This document shows, in pieces, positions 2,229 to 10,192 of a stretch of 10,192 nucleotides of DNA. The notes beneath the pieces are model-generated. The model saw only the letters and a program-made list of their open reading frames with translations. It made no database searches and was not told where the DNA came from. Positions within the stretch are counted from its first letter, which is position 1; each line of letters starts with the position of its first letter. The position numbers and the translations under genes were made by a program. The stretch is from a virus: the UHGV virus genome UHGV-0119409; one strand, given 5' to 3'.

Positions 2229-3030
2229 CCCACACCCCTTCTATCCAGTCAGTGTTATTCCAGTCAAGCTCATCGCTTTTCCCGGCATTTTTTGATTTTC
2301 CCCTGATATGATTTACGTGCCTGGCGAATTTTTGTTCCCACTGAACCTGCGTGAACACTTTGCCCTCAGCCATCCAGTAATCCCGGAATGCAGCAAGTTC
2401 AGCAGGTGTAAATTCCGGTTCCGGCAGGGCCGTTCCCCACAGCGCAGCACGCCGCCGAAAATCTGGCGACGGTAGCCAGCCATCTGTCATCGGAAATTTC
2501 CCGATGGGTTCACTCAGGCCATCCAGAAATTCAGGTTCTGCCACCTGCAACGGCGTACTGTTCGCTTCACTGGTCGGAGCACCCTCGCGCACGTGCGCTA
2601 TGTGTGGGGTTTTATATATATCTTCCTCTTCCTCTTCCTCTGGTAACTCCTTTTGTAACGCTGTTGGCGTTACTTTTTGCGTTACTCGTTTTCGATGCTC
2701 TGCCACTCTTCTATTCGTAAGTGCACGTTTTTTCGATGATTCTCCATTATGTCGCTCAAAGTTTGGAAGAATTAGTTTGCCGTCATGATAAGCAAGCCAT
2801 CCGACGCTAATGAGGGCGTCAGCAAATCCTGTAATAAAAGCGAGTCTATCAAGCACTCCTTTTGTAACGCTGCCAGCGTTACCGTCTATTGTTTGCTGGT
2901 CAGCCCATGCCCATATACGAACCAGCTTTCCAAGAACAGCATCTGGATCAATACCCAGAATTTCTGCTATCTGAAAAATTTCAGGTTTATCAGGAGTGAT
3001 AACTTCAACCTTAATCCAGCTGCTTGCCAT
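2200..3030 (-). CDS. Replication initiator, O-like (276 aa from ATG at 3030; a GTG at 3048 is the alternative start)
   Basis: Sits directly upstream of and overlapping the P-like gene. ATG at 3030 has GAGGGG 6-7 nt upstream. The protein has an N-terminal domain, an acidic EEEEEED linker and a C-terminal domain, and the iteron-like DNA repeats sit in the linker-coding region as in lambda O. Confidence 0.65.
   Translation of the reverse strand: MASSWIKVEVITPDKPEIFQIAEILGIDPDAVLGKLVRIWAWADQQTIDGNAGSVTKGVLDRLAFITGFADALISVGWLAYHDGKLILPNFERHNGESSKKRALTNRRVAEHRKRVTQKVTPTALQKELPEEEEEEDIYKTPHIAHVREGAPTSEANSTPLQVAEPEFLDGLSEPIGKFPMTDGWLPSPDFRRRAALWGTALPEPEFTPAELAAFRDYWMAEGKVFTQVQWEQKFARHVNHIRGKSKNAGKSDELDWNNTDWIEGVWDEINSRTSQ
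2611..2685. other. Candidate origin of replication: AT-rich tract, (TCTTCC)3 and dyad half-sites at ~12-bp spacing
   Basis: ttatatata (2612-2620), then (tcttcc)x3 (2621-2638), then half-sites gtaacgc at 2655-2661 and gcgttac at 2667-2673 and 2679-2685 (12-bp spacing; partial gtaac at 2644). The 19-bp dyad gtaacgctgttggcgttac lies at 2655-2673. All inside the linker-coding part of the O-like gene. Confidence 0.5.
2857..2882. repeat. Second copy of the 17-bp repeat ctccttttgtaacgctg plus a 19-bp perfect dyad
   Basis: Exact 17-bp repeat of 2647-2663 followed by gtaacgctgccagcgttac (9-bp arms). It is read in a different codon phase from copy 1, so the conservation is at the DNA level. Confidence 0.5.
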
Positions 3031-3223
3031 AGGTTTCCCCTCTTGCACTCTTTAGTGCACAAGCAAATTCATTACGATGGCGGTTGGCGCTATTCATTGC
3101 ACATTCAACACATGTTCCGTTCAGAACATACCTTTCAGAGAGATGGCCGTGACGGCACCGCTTTCCTGTGAAATAGCGATTTAACCCGGCTTTTGCGGCC
3201 TCCATTCTGGTTACTATCTTCAA
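3011..3223 (-). CDS. Small Cys/His-containing protein, possible zinc-binding regulator (70 aa; TTG start at 3223 or ATG at 3205)
   Basis: ORF between the cro-like and O-like genes in operon orientation. Motif ...KRCRHGH...NGTCVEC... suggests a metal-binding knuckle. Start codon uncertain. Overlaps the O-like gene start by about 20 nt. Confidence 0.45.
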   Translation of the reverse strand: MKIVTRMEAAKAGLNRYFTGKRCRHGHLSERYVLNGTCVECAMNSANRHRNEFACALKSARGETYGKQLD

Positions 3224-3326
3224 TTTTTCCGCCCCTTTTTGTTATTGATATTGGCTATTTTGCACAATTGGAAAATTTGATCAACCAGATTTGGTTTTTT
3301 ATTACCTTTGAGGTACGAATAGATAT

Positions 3327-3350
3327 GAAAAGACCGCCGGGTGGCGGTCT
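3327..3350 (-). terminator. Intrinsic terminator downstream of the cro-like gene (tR1-like position)
   Basis: Minus strand reads AGACCGCC-ACCC-GGCGGTCT (8-bp GC-rich stem, 3331-3350) followed by TTTT (complement of 3327-3330). Confidence 0.5.
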
Positions 3351-3371
3351 ACAGAGGGTTGTAGCTGGATA

Positions 3372-3602
3372 TCATGAGTAGAAGAAGTATGCCAGTTCTG
3401 CTTTTGAGCGCAGCCATTGTCTTGTTTTACAGGCTTTAAAAAGCCCATTCATCAATACCTTACCTGGCATTTTGCGCTTGCCTGTTAAGTGAGTCTGGAT
3501 ATAGTGACTCGTCGTTCCGGCTTCCTGTGCGAAGGCTTCACGCTCATCCGGAGTAAGTGCAAGCCAGTGCTTTTTGAAATCGAAATGTCCGTTATCGCTC
3601 AT
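3372..3602 (-). CDS. Cro-like HTH DNA-binding regulator (76 aa)
   Basis: First gene of the leftward operon, divergent from the repressor. Segment ...FAQEAGTTSHYIQTHLTGKRK... has helix-turn-helix character resembling Cro/CII-type phage regulators. Weak SD. Confidence 0.55.
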   Translation of the reverse strand: MSDNGHFDFKKHWLALTPDEREAFAQEAGTTSHYIQTHLTGKRKMPGKVLMNGLFKACKTRQWLRSKAELAYFFYS

Positions 3603-3638
3603 AGCTATTGCCTGATATTTATTTCAGATAATAAATAT

Positions 3639-3701
3639 TCACCCATAAGGTAACAAAAATCAAGGATAGTTACCTATGAGGTGCATTTACCTGTTGGGTA
3701 A
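3639..3701. promoter_or_regulatory. Divergent immunity control region with a tripartite operator (OR-like)
   Basis: Perfect palindrome ttacctgttgggtaa (3687-3701), and degenerate copies ttacctatgaggtgc (3670-3684) and tcacccataaggtaa (3639-3653), between the divergent cro-like and repressor genes. Exact -35/-10 elements not resolved. Confidence 0.6.
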
Positions 3702-3756
3702 TATTGCTTTAAATTGAATCATCTACTGATTCATATATGAGGCGATTTTCCAGAAA

Positions 3757-4341
3757 ATGAAAAGTATCCAGGACGTCCGCAGGCAAAATCTCAACGACTT
3801 GATCGACCGTGAATTCAATGGTGTTCAGACGCGGATGGCAGAAAAACTTGGAACTCAGGCAAATCTGGTAAACCGCTGGGCTCTTGGCAAGAAGGTTATC
3901 GGCGACCAGGTTGCGCGAAAAATTGAAGCTGCCGCCAATAAACCACGTAACTGGCTTGATATCGATCGCTCGCTTTCTCAGGAAGGTTTTCAGCCTGTCG
4001 GCCCGAGCGATATAGGTCAGCTGGCGGCTCACAACCTGGAACGCTGGATGAGCGAAAGCCGCGACCTTTCAACACAGGGAAAACTTCACCGCGCATCCGG
4101 CGTCGCCCAGGTGACAATCAGCCGCCTGTTAAACAATGAGGTCAGCGTTTCCATTTCCACCCTGGAGAATGTTGCATCCGCATTCGGGCGTCACGGATAT
4201 GAACTACTGATTCACCCGCACGACCCTGCGACTATCAACTATGACCGCTCACGCTACGCATTGTTACCCGAAACCGAGAAAGCAAAGATCGAAAGTTACA
4301 TTGAATTTGTCATCAACCAGAACGAAAAAAGCAAACAATAA
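3757..4341 (+). CDS. Prophage repressor, CI-like by position, without a recognisable LexA/S24 autocleavage domain (194 aa)
   Basis: Divergent from the cro-like gene and followed by a terminator. Two HTH-like segments (...QTRMAEKLGTQANLVNRW... and ...ASGVAQVTISRLLNN...). No Ala-Gly cleavage site or Ser...Lys dyad pattern seen. Confidence 0.6.
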   Translation: MKSIQDVRRQNLNDLIDREFNGVQTRMAEKLGTQANLVNRWALGKKVIGDQVARKIEAAANKPRNWLDIDRSLSQEGFQPVGPSDIGQLAAHNLERWMSESRDLSTQGKLHRASGVAQVTISRLLNNEVSVSISTLENVASAFGRHGYELLIHPHDPATINYDRSRYALLPETEKAKIESYIEFVINQNEKSKQ

Positions 4342-4362
4342 AACTATATTTTTCAGTAAGTA

Positions 4363-4386
4363 AGCCGCCTCATGGCGGCTTTTTTA
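4363..4386 (+). terminator. Rho-independent terminator after the repressor gene
   Basis: agccgcc-tcat-ggcggct hairpin (4363-4380) followed by tttttt (4381-4386). Confidence 0.75.
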
Positions 4387-4398
4387 TTGCCAGATAGA

Positions 4399-4475
4399 TT
4401 ACCTTACGGGTAATTTTTTTAACTCATATCTATTGACACCAAACCAAATAAGCATAATTATTACCTCAACGGTAA
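4399..4475 (+). promoter_or_regulatory. pL-like early promoter flanked by two operator palindromes
   Basis: ttaccttacgggtaa (4399-4413), 19 bp, TTGACA (4433-4438), 16-17 bp, taatta (4455-4460), ttacctcaacggtaa (4461-4475), then GAGG and ATG at 4495. Confidence 0.7.
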
Positions 4476-4494
4476 CAGACCGAGGTAACAAGTT

Positions 4495-4647
4495 ATGCAG
4501 TGGAAAATCATCAACGGTTGGTACTGCGTTACTGCATGCGGATTCATGAGCTGGAAGTTCCGCACCTTACAGGAAGGCATTAAGTGGGCTTTCGTCAGCA
4601 AAGAAGCTCGCGATGTAGCCAACGATAACGAGATATGGGAGGGCTGA
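4495..4647 (+). CDS. Small Trp-rich protein (50 aa), first gene of the rightward early operon
   Basis: ATG at 4495 with GAGG 9 nt upstream. Translation MQWKIINGWYCVTACGFMSWKFRTLQEGIKWAFVSKEARDVANDNEIWEG. Stop TGA at 4645-4647 is 2 nt from the next start. Not in the supplied ORF track (below its length cutoff). Confidence 0.4.
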   Translation: MQWKIINGWYCVTACGFMSWKFRTLQEGIKWAFVSKEARDVANDNEIWEG

Positions 4648-4649
4648 TA

Positions 4650-4949
4650 ATGAACGTTAATCAGCAGAAAAATCTTCAAAAAATCATGCTGGCATTCGAC
4701 AAGGACTACCGCCTGTCAGAACAGCTATATGACCGACAAGTTGAACTGATTGAGAGCATCCGACTTCATCAACTGTCCTCAACTTTCGACGTTGTAACAG
4801 GCAAAGGCGTTCGTCAGGAAGTGCTGGAGGCTGCTAAAGACAGCCCTGAGTTCGAAGAACTGATAGATTCCTACCGGCGCGAGGCAATGGCAATTATCGC
4901 CCGCTGGGATCTGGCGGATCGGATTGATGGGCAGAGGGAAGCGGCATGA
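4650..4949 (+). CDS. Hypothetical protein (99 aa) immediately upstream of the exo/RecT pair
   Basis: ATG at 4650 with GGGAGGG 6 nt upstream (preferred over the in-frame ATG at 4635). Stop overlaps the next gene's start (ATGATG). Confidence 0.6.
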   Translation: MNVNQQKNLQKIMLAFDKDYRLSEQLYDRQVELIESIRLHQLSSTFDVVTGKGVRQEVLEAAKDSPEFEELIDSYRREAMAIIARWDLADRIDGQREAA

Positions 4950-5845
4950 TGCAGAACGCTGGAATCATGGATAGAACAAAATACATCGGAGGAAGCGATG
5001 TTGCAGGGATTCTTGGAATTAGCCCATGGCGCACCCCGCTTGAGGTTTATCTGGATAAGGTCCAGCCACGTGTCAAACCAGTAGACCCAAGCAAGCAGAA
5101 AGTTTTCACGCGTGGCCAGCGTATGGAGCCATACGTAATAGACCTGCTTTCTGAGGAAACAGGGATGGAAATCGTTCATCGCGGAAACCGCTATATCCAC
5201 CGTGATTACGATTTTATTGCAGCTGAGATCGATGCAGAAGCAGCGTCAGGCGAGAACATTGAGATCAAAACAGTTAGTCCGTTCAAAGCCAAAGAATGGG
5301 GAGAAATCCAGACAGATGCAATTCCTGTGCATTACACGGCCCAGGCCATGCACGGGTTGATGGTTACAAACAAACAGGTATGCGTTTTCGGTGTGCTTAT
5401 CGGTGGCGACGACTTCCGAATCTATCGGGTTGAGCGTGATGAAGAAACTATCCAGGCGATCTTAGAAAAAGAAATCGCTTTCTGGGACCGAGTGAAAAAT
5501 CTTAACCCGCCGGAAGCTACCAGCGTAAGCGATGTATCGCTGATGTTTGAGAAAGATGCCGGGACAAGTATCGAGGCTGACGGAAAGGCACTCGCACTAT
5601 TCAACGATCTACGAGACATGAAGTCACGCAGAAAATCACTGGAAGAAGAAATAGCTATATCAGAAGAGAAGCTGAAGATGTACATGCAAGAGCACTCAGT
5701 CCTGACCCTGGACGGAAAGCCGCTCTGCACATGGAAATCTCAGATCAGCAACAGATTCGACCAGAAGCTATTCCAGTCAGTACACCCTGAGTTATTCGAA
5801 AAATTCAAAACAACAACGACACAACGCGTCTTCAGAATGAAGTAA
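4946..5845 (+). CDS. YqaJ-like recombination exonuclease (PD-(D/E)XK) with a C-terminal extension of about 100 aa (299 aa)
   Basis: N-terminal ...IGGSDVAGILGISPWRTPLEVY..., then ...QRMEPYV..., ...DAEAASGENIEIKT..., ...YTAQAMHG... fit the YqaJ/lambda-Exo-type nuclease motif order. Immediately upstream of RecT. Confidence 0.75.
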   Translation: MMQNAGIMDRTKYIGGSDVAGILGISPWRTPLEVYLDKVQPRVKPVDPSKQKVFTRGQRMEPYVIDLLSEETGMEIVHRGNRYIHRDYDFIAAEIDAEAASGENIEIKTVSPFKAKEWGEIQTDAIPVHYTAQAMHGLMVTNKQVCVFGVLIGGDDFRIYRVERDEETIQAILEKEIAFWDRVKNLNPPEATSVSDVSLMFEKDAGTSIEADGKALALFNDLRDMKSRRKSLEEEIAISEEKLKMYMQEHSVLTLDGKPLCTWKSQISNRFDQKLFQSVHPELFEKFKTTTTQRVFRMK

Positions 5846-5854
5846 GGAGAAAAA

Positions 5855-6877
5855 ATGTCTATCAATGCACTTAAGGCAGCGGCTACCGGTAACCAAGTTG
5901 CACATCATAATGAGAAACCAACAACTCTGGCCGGACTTCTGGCAGACCCAAAAATTAAAGCTCAGATGGCTTTGGCACTTCCAAAGCACATGACAGCAGA
6001 CCGTCTGGCGCGCATAGCAACCACAGAGATCCGAAAGGTTCCAAAACTTGCATCATGCGACCAAGCCAGCTTCCTGGGGGCAATTATGCAATGTGCCCAA
6101 TTGGGTCTTGAACCAGGAGGAGCTCTTGGACACGCTTACCTGATACCGTTCGACAAACGCCAGAAAGTAAATGGAAGATGGGAAACCGTATCTACAGAAG
6201 CACAGCTGATTATCGGCTATCGCGGAATGATTGACCTTGCCCGCCGCTCTGGGCAGATCCTGAGTATCTCGGCTCGTACCGTACATACAAACGACAAATT
6301 CAGCTACTCATACGGCCTGGAAGAAACGCTCGAGCATTTACCTTGCGAAACAGGTGACCGCGGAGAATTAACGCACGTTTACGCCGTTGCACGACTGAAA
6401 GATGGCGGAGTCCAATTTGAAGTTATGAGCCGGGCAGACATTGAGAAAGTTCGTGCACTGAGCAAAGCCGGTAGCAGTGGCCCATGGGTTGATCACTTCG
6501 ATGAGATGGCTAAAAAAACAGTAATTCGCCGACTATTCAAATATCTTCCTGTTTCTATTGAAATGCAGAAGGCTGTTGTTATGGATGAGCGCGCTGAAGC
6601 TGGACTTAGCCAAGATAACGCAGCTGTTATCACTGGTGAATATTCCGTAGTTGACGATGAGCGTCAACACCTGTCGCCAATTTCAGATTCAGAACGAGAA
6701 GAAGCTCGAGAATATATCATCGCGATACTTAATAGCCTGGATCCATCTGCTGAAGATGCAAAAACGATGTTCAAGCGCGCTGAAAATGAGATTAACACCA
6801 TGGCTGAAAAGCTCGGTGATGAATATCACCAAAAATTCATGATGACGCTTAACGATATGCGTCCAGAATTCGAGTAA
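5855..6877 (+). CDS. recT: RecT-family single-strand annealing recombinase (340 aa)
   Basis: AAGGAG 6 nt upstream of ATG at 5855. Sequence character (...GHAYLIPF..., ...IIGYRGMIDLARRSG...) and pairing with a YqaJ-type exonuclease match RecT/Redbeta-type SSAPs as I recall them. Confidence 0.8.
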   Translation: MSINALKAAATGNQVAHHNEKPTTLAGLLADPKIKAQMALALPKHMTADRLARIATTEIRKVPKLASCDQASFLGAIMQCAQLGLEPGGALGHAYLIPFDKRQKVNGRWETVSTEAQLIIGYRGMIDLARRSGQILSISARTVHTNDKFSYSYGLEETLEHLPCETGDRGELTHVYAVARLKDGGVQFEVMSRADIEKVRALSKAGSSGPWVDHFDEMAKKTVIRRLFKYLPVSIEMQKAVVMDERAEAGLSQDNAAVITGEYSVVDDERQHLSPISDSEREEAREYIIAILNSLDPSAEDAKTMFKRAENEINTMAEKLGDEYHQKFMMTLNDMRPEFE

Positions 6878-6926
6878 CCACCACCGCGGTGCCACACGCG
6901 CCGCACTGCAACCAAGAGAGGTATTT

Positions 6927-7175
6927 ATGAAAGGTGCATTAGGTAAGAAGGAACTCCTGGCGGTGGTGCCACTGTCATGGAGCACTATAGACCGTATGGA
7001 GCGCGCAGGGGAATTTCCTAAACGCTGGTATATCACTGACAAACGCTGCGCATGGAACCGTGACGAAGTTGAGCGTTGGCTTGATGAACGTCAGGCAGCA
7101 AGCCCGGCAGAGTTCCAGGGTAAAAAACCTCCTGTTCAGCAACGTGTATATCGTCCCGTGAGCAACGCTGCATGA
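6927..7175 (+). CDS. AlpA-family HTH protein, probable excisionase / recombination directionality factor (82 aa)
   Basis: AGAGAGG upstream of ATG at 6927. Motif ...LSWSTIDRMERAGEFPKRWYI...RCAWNRDEVERWLDER... fits AlpA/Vis-type small MerR-like excisionases that partner P4-type integrases. Confidence 0.7.
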   Translation: MKGALGKKELLAVVPLSWSTIDRMERAGEFPKRWYITDKRCAWNRDEVERWLDERQAASPAEFQGKKPPVQQRVYRPVSNAA

Positions 7176-7284
7176 GTGCGCTGCTAAGGCACTGGATCAA
7201 ATGGTCAGGATGGTACTTATTCCTGGCCTCTGTTTCAGCATGGCTTTATCTGCTGGCATTAATTTTCAGAGAGGGTTGGATTAA

Positions 7285-7584
7285 GTGAGAAAGTTAAGCC
7301 GACTTGAAAAATATCACATGAATAAGGTTTCAATGCGCAGTCCGTCAAAGATTGTCGCCGTTACTCCTGCGGCGATAGAGATCGAAAAACGCGCGATTGA
7401 AAGAGAGAAAAAAGGGCAGTTCCGCATTGCCGCTCACCTTTGGCTTCAGTGTATGGATGTTGCTTCTGGTGATGTTGAGCGTGCAAGGATCGCGGTTCGC
7501 AGGGACCAATGTATCACAAAAGGTAACGGCCTTCGCCGTGGAGACTATAGCGGTATAGGATGTTGCGGGGTGGTTTATGACTAA
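7285..7584 (+). CDS. Small ANR-like protein, possible regulator (99 aa from GTG at 7285; ATG alternatives at 7318 and 7333)
   Basis: Pattern ...KRAIEREKKGQFRIAAHLWLQCMDVASGDVERARIAVRRDQC... resembles the small ANR (Aar-like) family. Stop overlaps the methyltransferase start. Start codon uncertain. Confidence 0.45.
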   Translation: MRKLSRLEKYHMNKVSMRSPSKIVAVTPAAIEIEKRAIEREKKGQFRIAAHLWLQCMDVASGDVERARIAVRRDQCITKGNGLRRGDYSGIGCCGVVYD

Positions 7585-8227
7585 GAAATACACACTAATC
7601 TATGCAGATCCACCCTGGGTATACCGGGACAAAGCCGCAGATGGTAATCGCGGTGCCGGTTTTAAATATCCGGTTATGAGTGTGCTGGATATCTGCCGCC
7701 TTCCTGTGTGGGATTTGGCCGATGAAAACTGTCTGTTGGCCATGTGGTGGGTGCCAACACAACCACTCGAAGCACTAAAAGTTGTTGAAGCCTGGGGATT
7801 CCGTCTGATGACGATGAAGGGCTTCACGTGGATAAAATGTGGTAGTCGACAACCAGATAAACTGGTTATGGGTATGGGACACATGACTCGCGCCAATAGT
7901 GAAGATTGCCTGTTTGCAGTAAAGGGAAAACTACCTCCACGCATTAATGCAGGGATCGTTCAGTCATTTACCGCACCGCGGCTTGAGCATTCAAGAAAAC
8001 CAGATGTCGTTCGTGAAAAACTTGTGCAATTGTTAGGCGATGTTTCTCGCATTGAACTGTTCGCCCGCCAGACGTCTCATGGCTTCGATGTTTGGGGTAA
8101 TCAGTGCGAAGACCCGGCAGTGCAACTACACCCTGGATACGCGTTGGATATTGGCGGATTAACAAATGCATTCAGCAATGCTCCGGTGTCACCAATAGAC
8201 AACCAGGGGCGGGAGCGTGCAGCATGA
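7577..8227 (+). CDS. MT-A70-family DNA N6-adenine methyltransferase, orphan (216 aa)
   Basis: N-terminal ...[10 protein letters not shown]... with the DPPW catalytic motif, and overall size typical of phage MT-A70-like methylases. No adjacent restriction endonuclease candidate. Confidence 0.75.
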
Positions 8228-8883
8228 ACCTATATCAACGCATCAATGGCGCTGACTGGTGCAATATCTTCGTCGTCGGCGATCTGCATGGGTGCTACAC
8301 GCTGCTGATGAACGAACTCGACAAAGTTTCATTCGACCCGGCGCGCGATTTACTTATTTCCGTTGGTGACCTTGTTGACCGCGGCGCTGAAAACGTCGAA
8401 TGCCTGGATTTGATTACTATGCCGTGGTTCCGAGCTGTTCGTGGCAACCATGAGCAGATGATGCTGGATGCACTGGTCAACGGCGGAAGTTTCGGACATT
8501 GGATGTCAAACGGCGGTGGATGGTGGCACCAACTTGATTCTGAGCAGGATGTGCAACTCAAATACCTTCTGCCAAAGATTACCAACCTCCCGATGATTAT
8601 CGAACTGGTTACCGGCAATAAGAAGGTCGTCATCTGTCACGCAGACTACCCGCACAACGAATACGCATTCGATAAGCCAGTACCAGAAGAAATGGTGATA
8701 TGGAATCGTGAGCGGGTTAGCGACGCGCAGGACGGTATTGTCTCGGAGATAACCGGTGCCGATTTGTTCATCTTCGGTCATACGCCAGCACATCACCCAC
8801 TGGTGTATGCAAACCAGATGTACATCGACACCGGCGCAGTGTTCTGCGGAAATCTGACGCTTACCAAAGTCCAGGAAGGATAG
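8224..8883 (+). CDS. Ser/Thr protein phosphatase, lambda-PPase / PrpA-like metallophosphoesterase (219 aa)
   Basis: Motifs GDLHG, GDLVDRG and GNHE in canonical order. ATG at 8224 overlaps the methyltransferase stop (ATGA). The track ORF 8104-8883 includes an in-frame non-coding extension. Confidence 0.85.
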
Positions 8884-8885
8884 AA

Positions 8886-10142
8886 TTATTTATTACTGTC
8901 TTCCATCCACCTCTCAAACTTCGACGGGGAGAACGGAATCAGATCCGTATGCTCCCCGTTAATCCAGGAATCAATCATATCGGCCCACTGCTGCAACATG
9001 TAGGCGCGCTGTCTGGCGTATTCCGCTTTGTTATATACGGCGCGCACACCTTTCTGCTCATGTGCCAGAGCCTTTTCAATCCAGTCTGAAGGATAACCAG
9101 CCTCATGCAACAACGTACTTGCTGTACGGCGCATATCGTGTACAGTGAAGTCCTGAATATGCTCACCATCTTCATTTATTATTTTCACCGTTCTGTCGAT
9201 CAGAGAGTTCAGCGCGGCATTAGATAATGGCTTCCGGAAATTGTAACGACCAGGAACCAGATATTCACTTCCACCAGCGCACATCTGCAACCCGACCAAT
9301 ATATCCTGTGCCTGTTTAGGCAGGTAAATAACGTGCGCCCGGCTTCCTTTCATGCGGTCTGAAGGAATTGTCCATGTCCATTTTTTAAAATCTATTTCAT
9401 CCCACGTTGCATTGGTGAATTCGCCTTTACGAACCATAGTGATAAGCACCAACTTTAAAGCCATTTTCATAGTGCCCATAGCACCAATGGCATCCAGCGT
9501 GCGGAAGAACAGGCCAATTTCTTCTGGTGTCAGTGTTCGCTCTCTTGGTTTAAATATGGCGATAGACGAAGGTTTAATGTCAGCCGCAGGATTAAACAAA
9601 CCATGACCACGGTCATTGGCGTGACGGTATACGCTGCTGATGATCTCCCTGGCCTGTACTGCTGTTGCCCGACCACCGCGTTCGACAATCCGGTCACACA
9701 AATCACGAACCATCGATGTGGTAATTTCAGCCATCATTTTGTTGCCAAGAACCGGAAGTATGTCACGGTCGATCACCGCCTGCTTCATTGCGCGGGTACT
9801 GTCAGCCAGGATGACGTGTTTCATATAACTGTCGGTATGTACCGCAAACGTCTCGGCACCACGAATCTTTTTGATACCGTCACGTTTAGCCGCAGCCGGC
9901 GACTGGCCTGCTTTAAGCAGCTTCTTTGCAGCAATCAGTTCTTCCCGCGCTTCTGCCAGGCTGATACCGTCACGCCCATACTGCCCGATTACCAGTGTTT
10001 CGCGGCGACCGTTGATACGGTAGTCATAGCGAAACGAGACCGTACCTGACGTAAGCACAGCTACATACAGCCCGTCACGATCGGAGACTTTGTATAGTTT
10101 GTCCTGCGGCTTGAGGTTTTTTAATTTTGTATCGGTAAGCAC
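8886..10142 (-). CDS. int: Tyrosine recombinase, P4-type phage integrase (418 aa)
   Basis: N-terminal ...LTDTKLKNLKPQDKLYKVSDRDGLYVAV... (P4-int arm-binding type). C-terminal catalytic signature ...HDMRRTASTLL...LAH...VYNKAEY (R, H-x-x-R, Y). Confidence 0.9.
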   Translation of the reverse strand: MLTDTKLKNLKPQDKLYKVSDRDGLYVAVLTSGTVSFRYDYRINGRRETLVIGQYGRDGISLAEAREELIAAKKLLKAGQSPAAAKRDGIKKIRGAETFAVHTDSYMKHVILADSTRAMKQAVIDRDILPVLGNKMMAEITTSMVRDLCDRIVERGGRATAVQAREIISSVYRHANDRGHGLFNPAADIKPSSIAIFKPRERTLTPEEIGLFFRTLDAIGAMGTMKMALKLVLITMVRKGEFTNATWDEIDFKKWTWTIPSDRMKGSRAHVIYLPKQAQDILVGLQMCAGGSEYLVPGRYNFRKPLSNAALNSLIDRTVKIINEDGEHIQDFTVHDMRRTASTLLHEAGYPSDWIEKALAHEQKGVRAVYNKAEYARQRAYMLQQWADMIDSWINGEHTDLIPFSPSKFERWMEDSNK

Positions 10143-10192
10143 AATTCACCCGTATAGAAACCATTTTCATGACGGTATGAGAGTATACCTTT

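Follow-up and report, generated by a model that had tools for sequence, protein, structure and literature searches.

The three overlapping genes between positions 7285 and 8883 of the window (the whole 10,192-nucleotide stretch of viral DNA analyzed here) most probably close the early-left operon of a Uetakevirus prophage related to epsilon15 and phiV10, at the end far from the promoter, a reading to which we assign a probability of about 0.8. The PerC-like gene and the methylase position, which come first and second, are backbone and are conserved across the phage genus. Cargo is limited to the third gene, encoding a phosphatase, in a sharply bounded one-gene slot. The sequence, gene calls, and family names had been published before, and within this described phage genus the arrangement is a frequent variant; the discovery value is small, and the contribution of this work is context.

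The probable end of a long early operon

The earlier note had described three overlapping genes, and all three were found as described on the plus strand: a PerC/Pch-family gene with a GTG start (7285 to 7584, 99 amino acids), a gene for an orphan MT-A70 (beta-class, DPPW) N6-adenine methyltransferase with an ATG start (7577 to 8227, 216 amino acids), and a gene for a lambda NinI-type Mn-dependent Ser/Thr(/Tyr) protein phosphatase, also with an ATG start (8224 to 8883, 219 amino acids). The first two overlap by 8 nt (ATGACTAA at 7577 to 7584) and the last two by 4 nt (ATGA at 8224 to 8227). Since these stop/start overlaps are real, translational coupling of the three genes, also proposed earlier, is plausible. 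Shine-Dalgarno-like purine runs (AGAGGG, GGGGTGG, and GGGAG) lie 5 to 9 nt 5' of each start. Matches in Pfam, PDB, and PHROG, the last at full length (phrog_868 for the PerC-like protein, phrog_359 for the methylase, and phrog_246 for the phosphatase), establish the three as genes and not chance ORFs. The GC content of 0.49 to 0.52 over 7400 to 8900 equals that of the flanks, and the base composition of the phosphatase cassette is not anomalous. An Rfam scan of the whole window gave no match.

Transcription of the whole operon may start at a promoter-like site, TTGACA-17-AATTAT (4433 to 4461, plus strand), a candidate early-left promoter by consensus match only. It lies downstream of the repressor terminator (4362 to 4381) and is the sole 10/12 match to the sigma-70 consensus on the plus strand between that terminator and 8883; in phiV10, a terminator is annotated at the equivalent place after the repressor gene. 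A simple consensus scan of the plus strand revealed no further promoter-like site from 4461 to 8883 and no terminator-like site from 4381 to 8883. The proposed order is repressor, terminator, promoter-like site, two small ORFs, YqaJ exonuclease, RecT, AlpA/Xis, 38-amino-acid membrane ORF, PerC-like gene, MT-A70 methylase, and slot gene, with successive spacings of -13, -4, +9, +49, -4, -4, -8, and -4 nt.

The uninterrupted chain of overlaps starts at an AlpA-family excisionase/regulator gene (6927 to 7175, plus strand; Pfam Phage_AlpA, E = 3.1e-5), whose counterpart in epsilon15 and SPN1S carries the annotations excisionase and regulator. The next member, absent from the earlier note, is an ORF for a 38-amino-acid membrane protein (7172 to 7288, plus strand; phrog_17484, E = 2.5e-26, full length). 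It is annotated in PAS61, phiV10, epsilon15, SPN1S, and Tyrion, and it overlaps alpA by 4 nt and the PerC-like gene, from the GTG at 7285, by another 4 nt. The overlaps previously described for the three genes are genuine, but the chain begins upstream at alpA and not at 7285. Tight packing of the operon as a whole accounts for these overlaps; they do not mark the last three genes as a dedicated machine. At the far end, a P4-type tyrosine integrase gene (8886 to 10142, minus strand; Arm-DNA-bind_3, Phage_int_M, and Phage_integrase) converges with the operon, and the int and phosphatase stop codons lie 2 nt apart on opposite strands. Relatives of the window prophage are integrated beside guaA (PMC9782041).

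The order from the repressor through the MT-A70 gene and a slot gene to a convergent P4-type integrase gene is shared with the early-left operon of phiV10 and epsilon15. The 1.7-kb stretch with the three genes is 99.9% identical to the chromosome of E. coli APEC O1 (NC_008563). With equal gene order, the region is 99.3% identical to Escherichia phage vB_EcoP_PAS61 (OQ921333) and 98.9% identical to phage BP9; identity to phiV10 is about 98.6% outside the slot gene. PAS61, BP9, and the guaA-type prophage of APEC O1 have the same genes in the same order, with no substantial difference from the window, and carry them under the names hypothetical protein or PerC family regulator, adenine DNA or MT-A70 methyltransferase, serine/threonine phosphatase (NinI), and integrase. 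The publications on phages PAS61 and ZX5 do not mention the three genes.

A PerC gene together with a methylase is found in phiV10, epsilon15, SPN1S, Tyrion, and prophages of Kosakonia, Klebsiella oxytoca, and E. coli. Unlike the window, epsilon15 and SPN1S have extra genes between the two, and their methylases have a shorter C-terminus than the window enzyme. Among complete E. coli genomes, the pair of PerC and MT-A70 genes occurs in 514 of 5,426, and 143 of these 514 carry the full trio with the phosphatase, as do two phage isolates (PAS61 and BP9). The suggestion that the combination was an undescribed operon thus did not hold: the identical trio has been sequenced and annotated in PAS61, BP9, and the 143 E. 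coli genomes.

The MT-A70 methylase and its likely substrate

The assignment of the second gene to the MT-A70 family was upheld by profile searches (PF05063, E = 5.8e-22; 78.9 bits against a cutoff of 23.9; model positions 1 to 172 of 172). Motif IV, DPPW, lies at residues 11 to 14; the second Pro is found in 9 of 10 relatives, and the other three residues (Asp, the first Pro, and Trp) do not vary. In PADLOC, the methylase matches MTase_II (E = 5.9e-77), the only match among the seven window proteins scanned. Among solved structures, the ciliate MTA1 complex and METTL3 come closest. A Pfam scan of the nine largest plus-strand and int ORFs of the window found no nuclease besides the YqaJ recombination exonuclease. 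Because no cognate endonuclease stands beside the methylase, whose neighbors are the PerC-like gene and the phosphatase gene, the enzyme is an orphan, as had been claimed; no endonuclease-like gene was found in the 10-kb window.

An M.EcoGII-type nonspecific methylase was considered and rejected: M.EcoGII has 349 amino acids, a DPPY motif, and a recognition domain in its center (PMC5778455), and the window enzyme is a 216-amino-acid DPPW MT-A70 protein. The number of GATC sites in the window (34 observed versus 39.7 expected) shows neither depletion nor enrichment and hence gives no clue to specificity. M.EcoVT2Dam, another candidate for the relevant homolog from Stx phages, is presumably a member of the second phage Dam family, PF05869. 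It is listed apart from M.EcoGV (PMC6602927).

By analogy with studied relatives, the methylase most likely methylates DNA adenine at GATC in a Dam-like manner. The phage and transposon MT-A70 enzymes that have been tested, PhiBZS1_p32 of Serratia phage BZS1 and M.EfaBMDam of Tn1549, are GATC specific (PMC7556043). These beta2-class enzymes belong to the same Pfam family as the window enzyme and are likewise small and single domain, and in temperate phages the gene lies near int (PMC7556043). The HK639 enzyme, a member of this group, is 75% identical to PhiBZS1_p32 (PMC7556043); it is 45% identical to the window methylase and has an insertion of 23 residues. In addition, the methylase position is held in sister prophages by an unrelated PF05869 Dam (E = 3e-58) or by a Dcm::Dam fusion, which argues for a role in DNA methylation. 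Its substrate would be phage DNA that is being replicated or has been packaged, once the prophage is induced or a cell is infected. The benefit may be protection from GATC cutters that are sensitive to methylation, or complete methylation where host Dam is in short supply. Against the Dam-like reading, an E. coli host that is Dam+ makes a further GATC methylase redundant, with no evident selective advantage.

The closest studied homolog is the Stx2a-phage enzyme M.EcoPA8orf6770P of prophage phiPA8, to which the window methylase is 83% identical over residues 1 to 187. For M.EcoGV of E. coli O104:H4, an enzyme described as very similar to that of the Stx2a phage, in vivo methylation of GATC has been reported (PMC10810198, PMC6602927). 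The window enzyme and the Stx2a-phage enzyme are both MT-A70/DPPW proteins whose genes lie in the early-left operon, a few genes from int. The Stx2a-phage methylase gene is followed by DUF1382, as in phiV10. The enzymes differ in their tails, which comprise the last 21 residues of the Stx2a-phage enzyme and the last 29 of the window enzyme; the different C-terminal tail of about 29 residues is conserved in relatives from E. coli, Enterobacter, Kosakonia, and Klebsiella oxytoca. In phiPA8, a stationary-phase promoter drives transcription of the homologous methylase gene in the lysogen (PMC10810198).

The DNA/GATC assignment is contested for this clade owing to results obtained with M.EcoPA8orf6770P, which barely methylated dam- DNA in vitro and, together with PNB-2, preferred 16S rRNA and 30S subunits (PMC10810198). 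The window methylase might accordingly be mainly an RNA methyltransferase that acts on 16S rRNA in the 30S subunit and tunes spontaneous prophage induction instead of protecting DNA, as a heterodimer with a small partner from the same operon. We regard this as possible but unlikely. It would fit the high identity to the Stx2a-phage enzyme, which is reported to form a 1:1 complex with PNB-2, to prefer 16S rRNA and 30S subunits, and to affect induction and virulence (PMC10810198). It would also fit the second subunit commonly needed by MT-A70 enzymes, the ciliate MTA1 complex and METTL3 being the nearest structures, and the small putative nucleic-acid-binding protein gene that often precedes phage MT-A70 genes. 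In Tyrion, the gene upstream codes for a wHTH protein, and in SPN1S, for one of the DGQHR type. The gene for an HTH-type "regulator" lies directly upstream of the methyltransferase gene of a Klebsiella phage, overlapping its start, and one ORF further upstream in HK639.

The window itself, however, has no homolog of PNB-2 or PNB-1 (best tblastn E = 1.3). A holoenzyme of the phiPA8 type would have its PNB-2 gene directly before the methylase gene and cotranscribed with it; in the window this place is taken by the PerC-like gene, which is unrelated to PNB-2. The STEC-type tail (the last approximately 27 amino acids), proposed to bind PNB-2, is replaced, and the alignment ends at residue 187. Moreover, the modified rRNA base was not identified, according to the authors of the study themselves (PMC10810198), and the in vivo GATC methylation reported for M.EcoGV is at odds with an rRNA substrate. 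The unrelated DNA Dam enzymes of the sister prophages, at the same operon position, also weigh against it. The presence of Dam at the methylase position thus bears on the dispute over whether this MT-A70 clade methylates GATC in DNA or 16S rRNA, and Dam-like DNA methylation is the substrate assignment that we favor.

The phosphatase and its slot beside int

The lambda-PPase-like call for the third gene also held: the phosphatase aligns with lambda phosphatase (PDB 1G5B) over residues 1 to 217 of both (E = 9e-100), and it matches Pfam Metallophos (E = 1.4e-15) and phrog_246, "NinI-like" (E = 8.6e-108). All lambda catalytic motifs are kept, namely, GDLHG at 19, GDLVDRG at 48, GNHE at 74, CHAD at 138, and GHTP at 185, so that the metal-binding and catalytic motifs are common to lambda NinI and the window phosphatase in a full-length alignment. 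At the DNA level, the gene is 67.6% identical to lambda ninI and 78% identical to the HK225 gene. The equivalogs of the chromosomal E. coli PrpA and PrpB (NF008516 and NF007425) were rejected, as both scores were below the cutoff (266 bits versus 326 and 221.6 versus 332). The location differs from that in lambda: the window gene ends the early-left operon and abuts int, whereas lambda ninI lies in the nin region between P and Q, upstream of Q. The genomic setting is what distinguishes the two here; the enzyme family is unchanged.

From the stop codon of the methylase gene to the 3' end of int there is room for one gene, and the phosphatase gene is one of several that can take this slot. This variable cassette slot (8229 to 8902) differs from those of phiV10, epsilon15, and SPN1S. 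In the alignment of the window with phiV10 (alignment A1), the two are identical through ATGAA (8224 to 8228), and similarity returns at about 8903, in the last codons of int. The usual filler is DUF1382; others are several unrelated ORFs of 59 to 95 amino acids, nothing at all, or the phosphatase. Thus, the slot gene is DUF1382 in phiV10, a 60-amino-acid ORF in epsilon15, and the phosphatase in the window. The int-proximal cargo slot proposed in the earlier note is therefore real for the phosphatase but does not extend to the PerC-like gene and the methylase gene, which are backbone. Of the features expected of a moron, presence or absence between conserved flanks applies to the phosphatase only, with boundaries at 8228/8229 and about 8903, and a promoter or terminator of its own was not found in the consensus scan (plus strand, 4461 to 8883).

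From its sequence, the phosphatase is predicted to be an active NinI-type enzyme that dephosphorylates host or phage phosphoproteins and to be dispensable like lambda NinI; lambda ninI is nonessential (PMC10695390). A more specific proposal is that the cassette is an antidefense gene that reverses Ser/Thr-kinase immunity or kinase toxins and that the slot is an exchange site for such genes. We consider this doubtful. The polymorphism of presence and absence at a sharply bounded slot among near-identical prophages would be in keeping with such a function, the active-site motifs are intact, and many temperate phages carry NinI-like genes, which they can do without. However, lambda NinI has no known target or phenotype, the window phosphatase carries no PADLOC or antidefense annotation, and a literature search found no report of NinI-type phosphatases as counterdefense. 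The remaining slot fillers, moreover, are tiny ORFs of unknown function. A general NinI-type phosphatase activity remains the reading that we prefer for this gene.

It is very improbable that the three genes constitute a dedicated and coselected counterdefense or host-modulation module, not described before, in which regulator, methylase, and phosphatase act together. Overlaps of stop and start codons such as these would allow coupled translation, the trio recurs in 2 phage isolates in addition to the 143 complete genomes of E. coli, and the phosphatase allele, counted at at least 95% identity, is almost confined to this context (146 complete E. coli genomes with the allele versus 143 with the trio). 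Nevertheless, the same overlaps join all upstream genes, and approximately 72% of the E. coli prophages with PerC and methylase genes lack the phosphatase, most having DUF1382 instead. The pair itself is not fixed either, since it is interrupted in relatives by DUF1317, wHTH, DGQHR, or DUF1382 genes, and the methylase is exchangeable for a PF05869 Dam while PerC stays. NinI-type phosphatases also occur elsewhere in other contexts, such as the nin region of lambda and HK225 and ppp in P1. A separate cargo module, as inferred in the earlier note, is thus not what was found: with no promoter or terminator site of their own in the consensus scan, these are distal genes of a long early-left operon.

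The PerC-like protein

The small protein encoded at 7285 to 7584 matches Pfam PerC (PF06069) with 30.1 bits against a cutoff of 22.6 (E = 6e-7) over 46 residues, corresponding to model positions 5 to 50 of 90. The NCBIfam ANR model (NF033650) matched the same stretch, residues 35 to 77, with 23.6 bits, below its cutoff of 32 (E = 3.4e-5). The description "ANR-like" was thus right with respect to similarity over the shared core, but the ANR cutoff was missed and the PerC threshold was passed instead. Within the subfamily, 39 of 40 scanned homologs matched ANR at an E value of ≤0.01 (best E = 9e-7), and the RefSeq name is PerC family regulator. The match to phrog_868 covers positions 1 to 99 of 99, which supports the GTG start.

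PerC/Pch, ANR (Aar), and the window protein are alike in being small, helical, about 10 kDa, and encoded on mobile elements. The window protein belongs to a subfamily of its own (phrog_868), which has a C-terminal tail and an additional helix at the N-terminus, and its gene is part of an early phage operon, with neither virulence genes nor an AraC-family gene beside it. The AlphaFold2 model is all helical, with four helices, a mean pLDDT of 74, and high pLDDT in the core helices at residues 28 to 42, 46 to 59, and 63 to 82. In a fold search against the PDB, the model had no match at an E value of ≤0.001 and no DNA-binding fold was recovered; the best matches were MIT-like three-helix bundles (E of about 0.4).

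By analogy with Pch and ANR/Aar, the protein may be a module of three helices that binds other proteins and so lifts silencing by H-NS. Pch relieves H-NS silencing and activates LEE1/ler (PMC4764244), and the ANR protein Aar binds H-NS (PMC5570504). The H-NS antagonism raised earlier as a possible role would fit this published work on both families. The role would be extrapolated from only distantly related family members, which counts against this step. The ANR family was defined by co-occurrence with an AraC/XylS-family partner in the same genome (PMC4983702). This definition requires no adjacency; a Pfam scan of nine ORFs of the 10-kb window found no AraC-family gene.

It is highly improbable that the PerC-like protein is an accessory MT-A70 subunit, a counterpart of PNB-2 that docks on the C-terminal tail of the methylase and sets its DNA or rRNA substrate: the 8-nt overlap of the two genes, their presence in one operon in all examined relatives of the Uetakevirus type that have an MT-A70 gene, and the conserved methylase tail of the E. 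coli, Enterobacter, Kosakonia, and Klebsiella oxytoca enzymes are compatible with it, but PerC is kept where a PF05869 Dam replaces MT-A70, the two genes are often separated by others, and epsilon15 and SPN1S have PerC without the methylase tail. Gene neighborhoods accordingly gave no support for an MT-A70-specific partner. If it were true, the PerC family would gain a biochemical activity, and phage MT-A70 enzymes would be obligate two-subunit enzymes like METTL3-METTL14, with swappable targeting subunits (PNB-2, wHTH, DGQHR, and PerC-like proteins). The "regulator" upstream of MT-A70 in the Klebsiella phage and HK639 was also considered as a PerC-domain protein and discarded, as it had no similarity and only a weak HTH_11 match.

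Returning to the H-NS-linked families, the ANR and PerC models match the same part of the small protein, at about residues 35 to 80. This shared core suggests that PerC and ANR, both H-NS-modulating families, are related.

Layout of the early operon

Three plus-strand genes precede int: a PerC-like gene (7285-7584; GTG start, 99 aa), an MT-A70 methylase gene (7577-8227; 216 aa), and a phosphatase gene (8224-8883; 219 aa). The earlier note had read them as overlapping genes, and both overlaps were borne out, ATGACTAA at 7577-7584 and ATGA at 8224-8227. A Shine-Dalgarno-like run lies 5' of each start, and the three products gave strong family matches, full length in PHROG (phrog_868, phrog_359, and phrog_246). 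Pfam profile searches confirmed the proposed MT-A70 and Metallophos families. A further ORF, absent from the first gene list, encodes a 38-aa predicted membrane protein (7172-7288, plus strand; phrog_17484, E 2.5e-26) and has 4-nt overlaps with alpA (6927-7175) and with the GTG start codon at 7285, so the overlap chain starts upstream of the reported module. This ORF is conserved in PAS61, phiV10, epsilon15, SPN1S, and Tyrion. In the database homolog P0087, its N terminus is fused to the PerC-like protein, probably through a frameshift or an error in sequencing.

From the repressor gene to 8883, the sole strong plus-strand promoter-like site was TTGACA-17-AATTAT at 4433-4461, a consensus match only, just downstream of a terminator-like hairpin at 4362-4381. 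After this hairpin, the consensus scan gave no further plus-strand terminator-like site up to 8883, nor any plus-strand promoter-like site ahead of 7285. Between 4495 and 8883, adjacent genes are spaced by -13, -4, +9, +49, -4, -4, -8, and -4 nt. Based on these spacings and the sole promoter-like site, the trio most likely forms the distal end of the early-left recombination/excision operon, and its coupling is predicted to be a feature of the entire operon. The phosphatase gene and int converge, their stop codons 2 nt apart (8881-8888). No terminator-like site lies between the two genes on either strand, and early-left transcripts would read antisense into int.

With nucleotides 6900-10192 as the megablast query, Escherichia phage vB_EcoP_PAS61 (99.3% identity) and phage BP9 (98.9%) matched end to end; the match to phiV10 and a dozen relatives, at about 98.6%, covered only 80% of the query, and epsilon15 and SPN1S matched at about 80% identity. 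The E. coli APEC O1 chromosome carries a 1.7-kb stretch at 99.9% identity, where RefSeq names a PerC family transcriptional regulator, an MT-A70 family methyltransferase, a serine/threonine protein phosphatase, and an integrase. Annotated Uetakevirus records share a common layout of repressor, terminator, two small ORFs, exonuclease and RecT, and AlpA/excisionase, followed by the 38-aa membrane ORF, the PerC-family gene, the methylase, a small slot gene, and a convergent P4-type integrase. Sister prophage loci place the integration site beside guaA (see also PMC9782041). The YqaJ exonuclease and RecT are separate genes in the window (4946-6877) and in epsilon15; one 1,761-nt RecE-RecT fusion ORF is annotated in phiV10 (1218-2978 of the locus), and two "RecT" coding sequences with a gap between them are annotated in PAS61.

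The operon had been proposed as a system not previously described. In fact, all of its parts come from known families, the identical arrangement is on public record with annotation, and experimental work on the closest methylase homolog exists. On gene-neighborhood evidence, a dedicated three-gene system does not hold up.

The phosphatase and its slot

Up to the methylase stop and the start codon after it (ATGAA, 8224-8228), the window and phiV10 are identical; they then diverge totally until about 8903, inside the final int codons. With the right cassette boundary there, the C termini of the integrases differ between cassette types. The slot holds DUF1382 in phiV10, ORFs of 60 aa in epsilon15, 59 aa in SPN1S, and 68 aa in Tyrion, ORFs of 63, 66, and 95 aa in enterobacterial prophage contigs, and nothing in some prophages. 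The methylase 3' end, CAGGGGCGGGAGCGTGCAGCATGA (8200-8228), also holds the ribosome binding site and start of the slot gene; the DNA is near-identical in phiV10, with two substitutions. This segment may serve as a recombination anchor for slot exchange.

Among 5,426 complete E. coli genomes, the PerC and MT-A70 pair was found in 514 (at least 95% identity) and the full trio in 143; DUF1382 mostly came next in a spread sample of genomes with the pair. The phosphatase allele (at least 95% identity) occurred in 146 of the complete genomes and is thus almost confined to the slot. GC content does not shift along the region. The idea of int-proximal cargo holds for the phosphatase, with its sharply bounded slot, but not for the PerC-like gene and the methylase, which belong to the backbone. 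By this distribution, the phosphatase alone behaves as cargo, and it has neither the promoter nor the terminator that mark a classical moron.

The lambda-type assignment of this enzyme stood. The protein matched Pfam Metallophos (E 1.4e-15) and aligned with lambda phosphatase (1G5B) over residues 1-217 (E 9e-100), and the motifs GDLHG, GDLVDRG, GNHE, CHAD, and GHTP are all intact. Its gene shares 78% DNA identity with that of HK225 and 67.6% with lambda ninI, partial matches extend to ppp of P1, and the protein scored under the equivalog cutoffs for both E. coli chromosomal phosphatases. An active Mn-dependent protein phosphatase is the statement that these features support. Lambda ninI is nonessential (PMC10695390), and our literature search turned up neither a physiological target nor an antidefense role for this type; counterdefense against kinase-based immunity is a guess.

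Target of the methylase

The methylase matched the full Pfam MT-A70 model (E 5.8e-22) and carries DPPW at residues 11-14; its nearest solved structures are a ciliate MTA1-complex subunit (E 4e-13) and METTL3. There is no endonuclease gene nearby and PADLOC returned MTase_II only, so the enzyme is an orphan, as the earlier note had held. An M.EcoGII-type enzyme was ruled out, M.EcoGII being a 349-aa DPPY protein (PMC5778455).

GATC methylation of DNA is the activity we favor, with a probability of roughly 0.55. The MT-A70 enzymes of Serratia phage BZS1 and Tn1549 are GATC specific, and the HK639 homolog is 75% identical to the BZS1 enzyme (PMC7556043) and 45% identical to the window methylase. 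M.EcoGV is described in PMC10810198 as highly similar to the Stx2a-phage enzyme and as methylating GATC in vivo when overproduced, and it is listed as a Dam homolog in PMC6602927. In several guaA-integrated sister prophages, a PF05869 Dam (E 3e-58) or a 664-aa C5-methylase::Dam fusion occupies the MT-A70 position (L008, 5819-6373; L012, 5104-5655; L013, 4445-6439; L014, 3261-3812), while the PerC gene and int are retained. This swap is a non-orthologous displacement of the methylase. In our reading, the strongest case from sequence for DNA adenine methylation as the selected function is that unrelated DNA Dam enzymes take over this place in the operon. The 34 GATC sites in the window, versus 39.7 expected, are unremarkable.

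An RNA target is unlikely, even though the closest studied homolog points to it. M.EcoPA8orf6770P of an Stx2a prophage, 83% identical to the window enzyme over residues 1-187, is reported to have hardly any activity on DNA in vitro, to pair 1:1 with PNB-2, the product of the gene directly upstream, to prefer 16S rRNA in 30S subunits, and to raise spontaneous induction (PMC10810198). However, the window has a PerC-like gene where that locus has PNB-2, and no PNB-2 homolog was found in it; the Dam replacements also argue for DNA. In addition, the last 29 methylase residues are unlike the Stx2a type: another tail (residues 188-216; 8140-8224) stands there, which is kept in E. coli, Enterobacter, Kosakonia, and Klebsiella oxytoca relatives and in Tyrion and is missing from epsilon15, SPN1S, and HK639.

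The PerC-like protein

A partnership between the PerC-like protein and the methylase is very improbable, because PerC persists when Dam replaces the methylase and other genes often separate the two: DUF1317 and a DGQHR gene in SPN1S, DUF1317 and a small wHTH gene in Tyrion, DUF1317 and DUF1382 in Klebsiella oxytoca prophages, and gp30 in epsilon15. The pair does not form a fixed unit. For phage MT-A70 genes, the ORF just 5' repeatedly encodes a putative nucleic-acid-binding protein of varying kind, and it often overlaps the start of the methylase gene (SPN1S, 2906-3901; Tyrion, 2284-2511; Stx2a phage, 3274-3504; loci L007, 2073-2501, and L015, 9973-10401). The kinds seen were DGQHR/DndB-like, a 75-aa wHTH protein, PNB-2, and a 142-aa HTH-type "regulator," which in HK639 is followed by a 55-aa ORF before the methylase. 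These genes could be swappable targeting partners of MT-A70 enzymes.

The label "ANR-like" was fair for a distant relation, as 39 of 40 subfamily members scanned matched ANR at E ≤ 0.01, but the window protein missed the NCBIfam ANR cutoff (residues 35-77; 23.6 bits versus 32) and reached that of Pfam PerC (residues 35-80, window 7387-7524; 30.1 bits versus a gathering score of 22.6). Members of this subfamily occur only in Enterobacteriaceae prophages. An AlphaFold model from 40 sequences (mean pLDDT, 74) has helices at 6-18, 28-42, 46-59, and 63-82 and a disordered tail. Foldseek against the PDB gave no significant match and no DNA-binding fold, the best matches being MIT-like three-helix bundles (E ~0.4). 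Pch lifts the silencing imposed by the H-NS/StpA/Hha complex (PMC4764244), and Aar, of the ANR family, binds H-NS (PMC5570504); by analogy with these distant relatives, the PerC-like protein most likely acts in antisilencing through protein-protein contact. Action on H-NS has been reported for both families, and since the PerC and ANR models match the same ~45-residue helical core, PerC/Pch and ANR look homologous.
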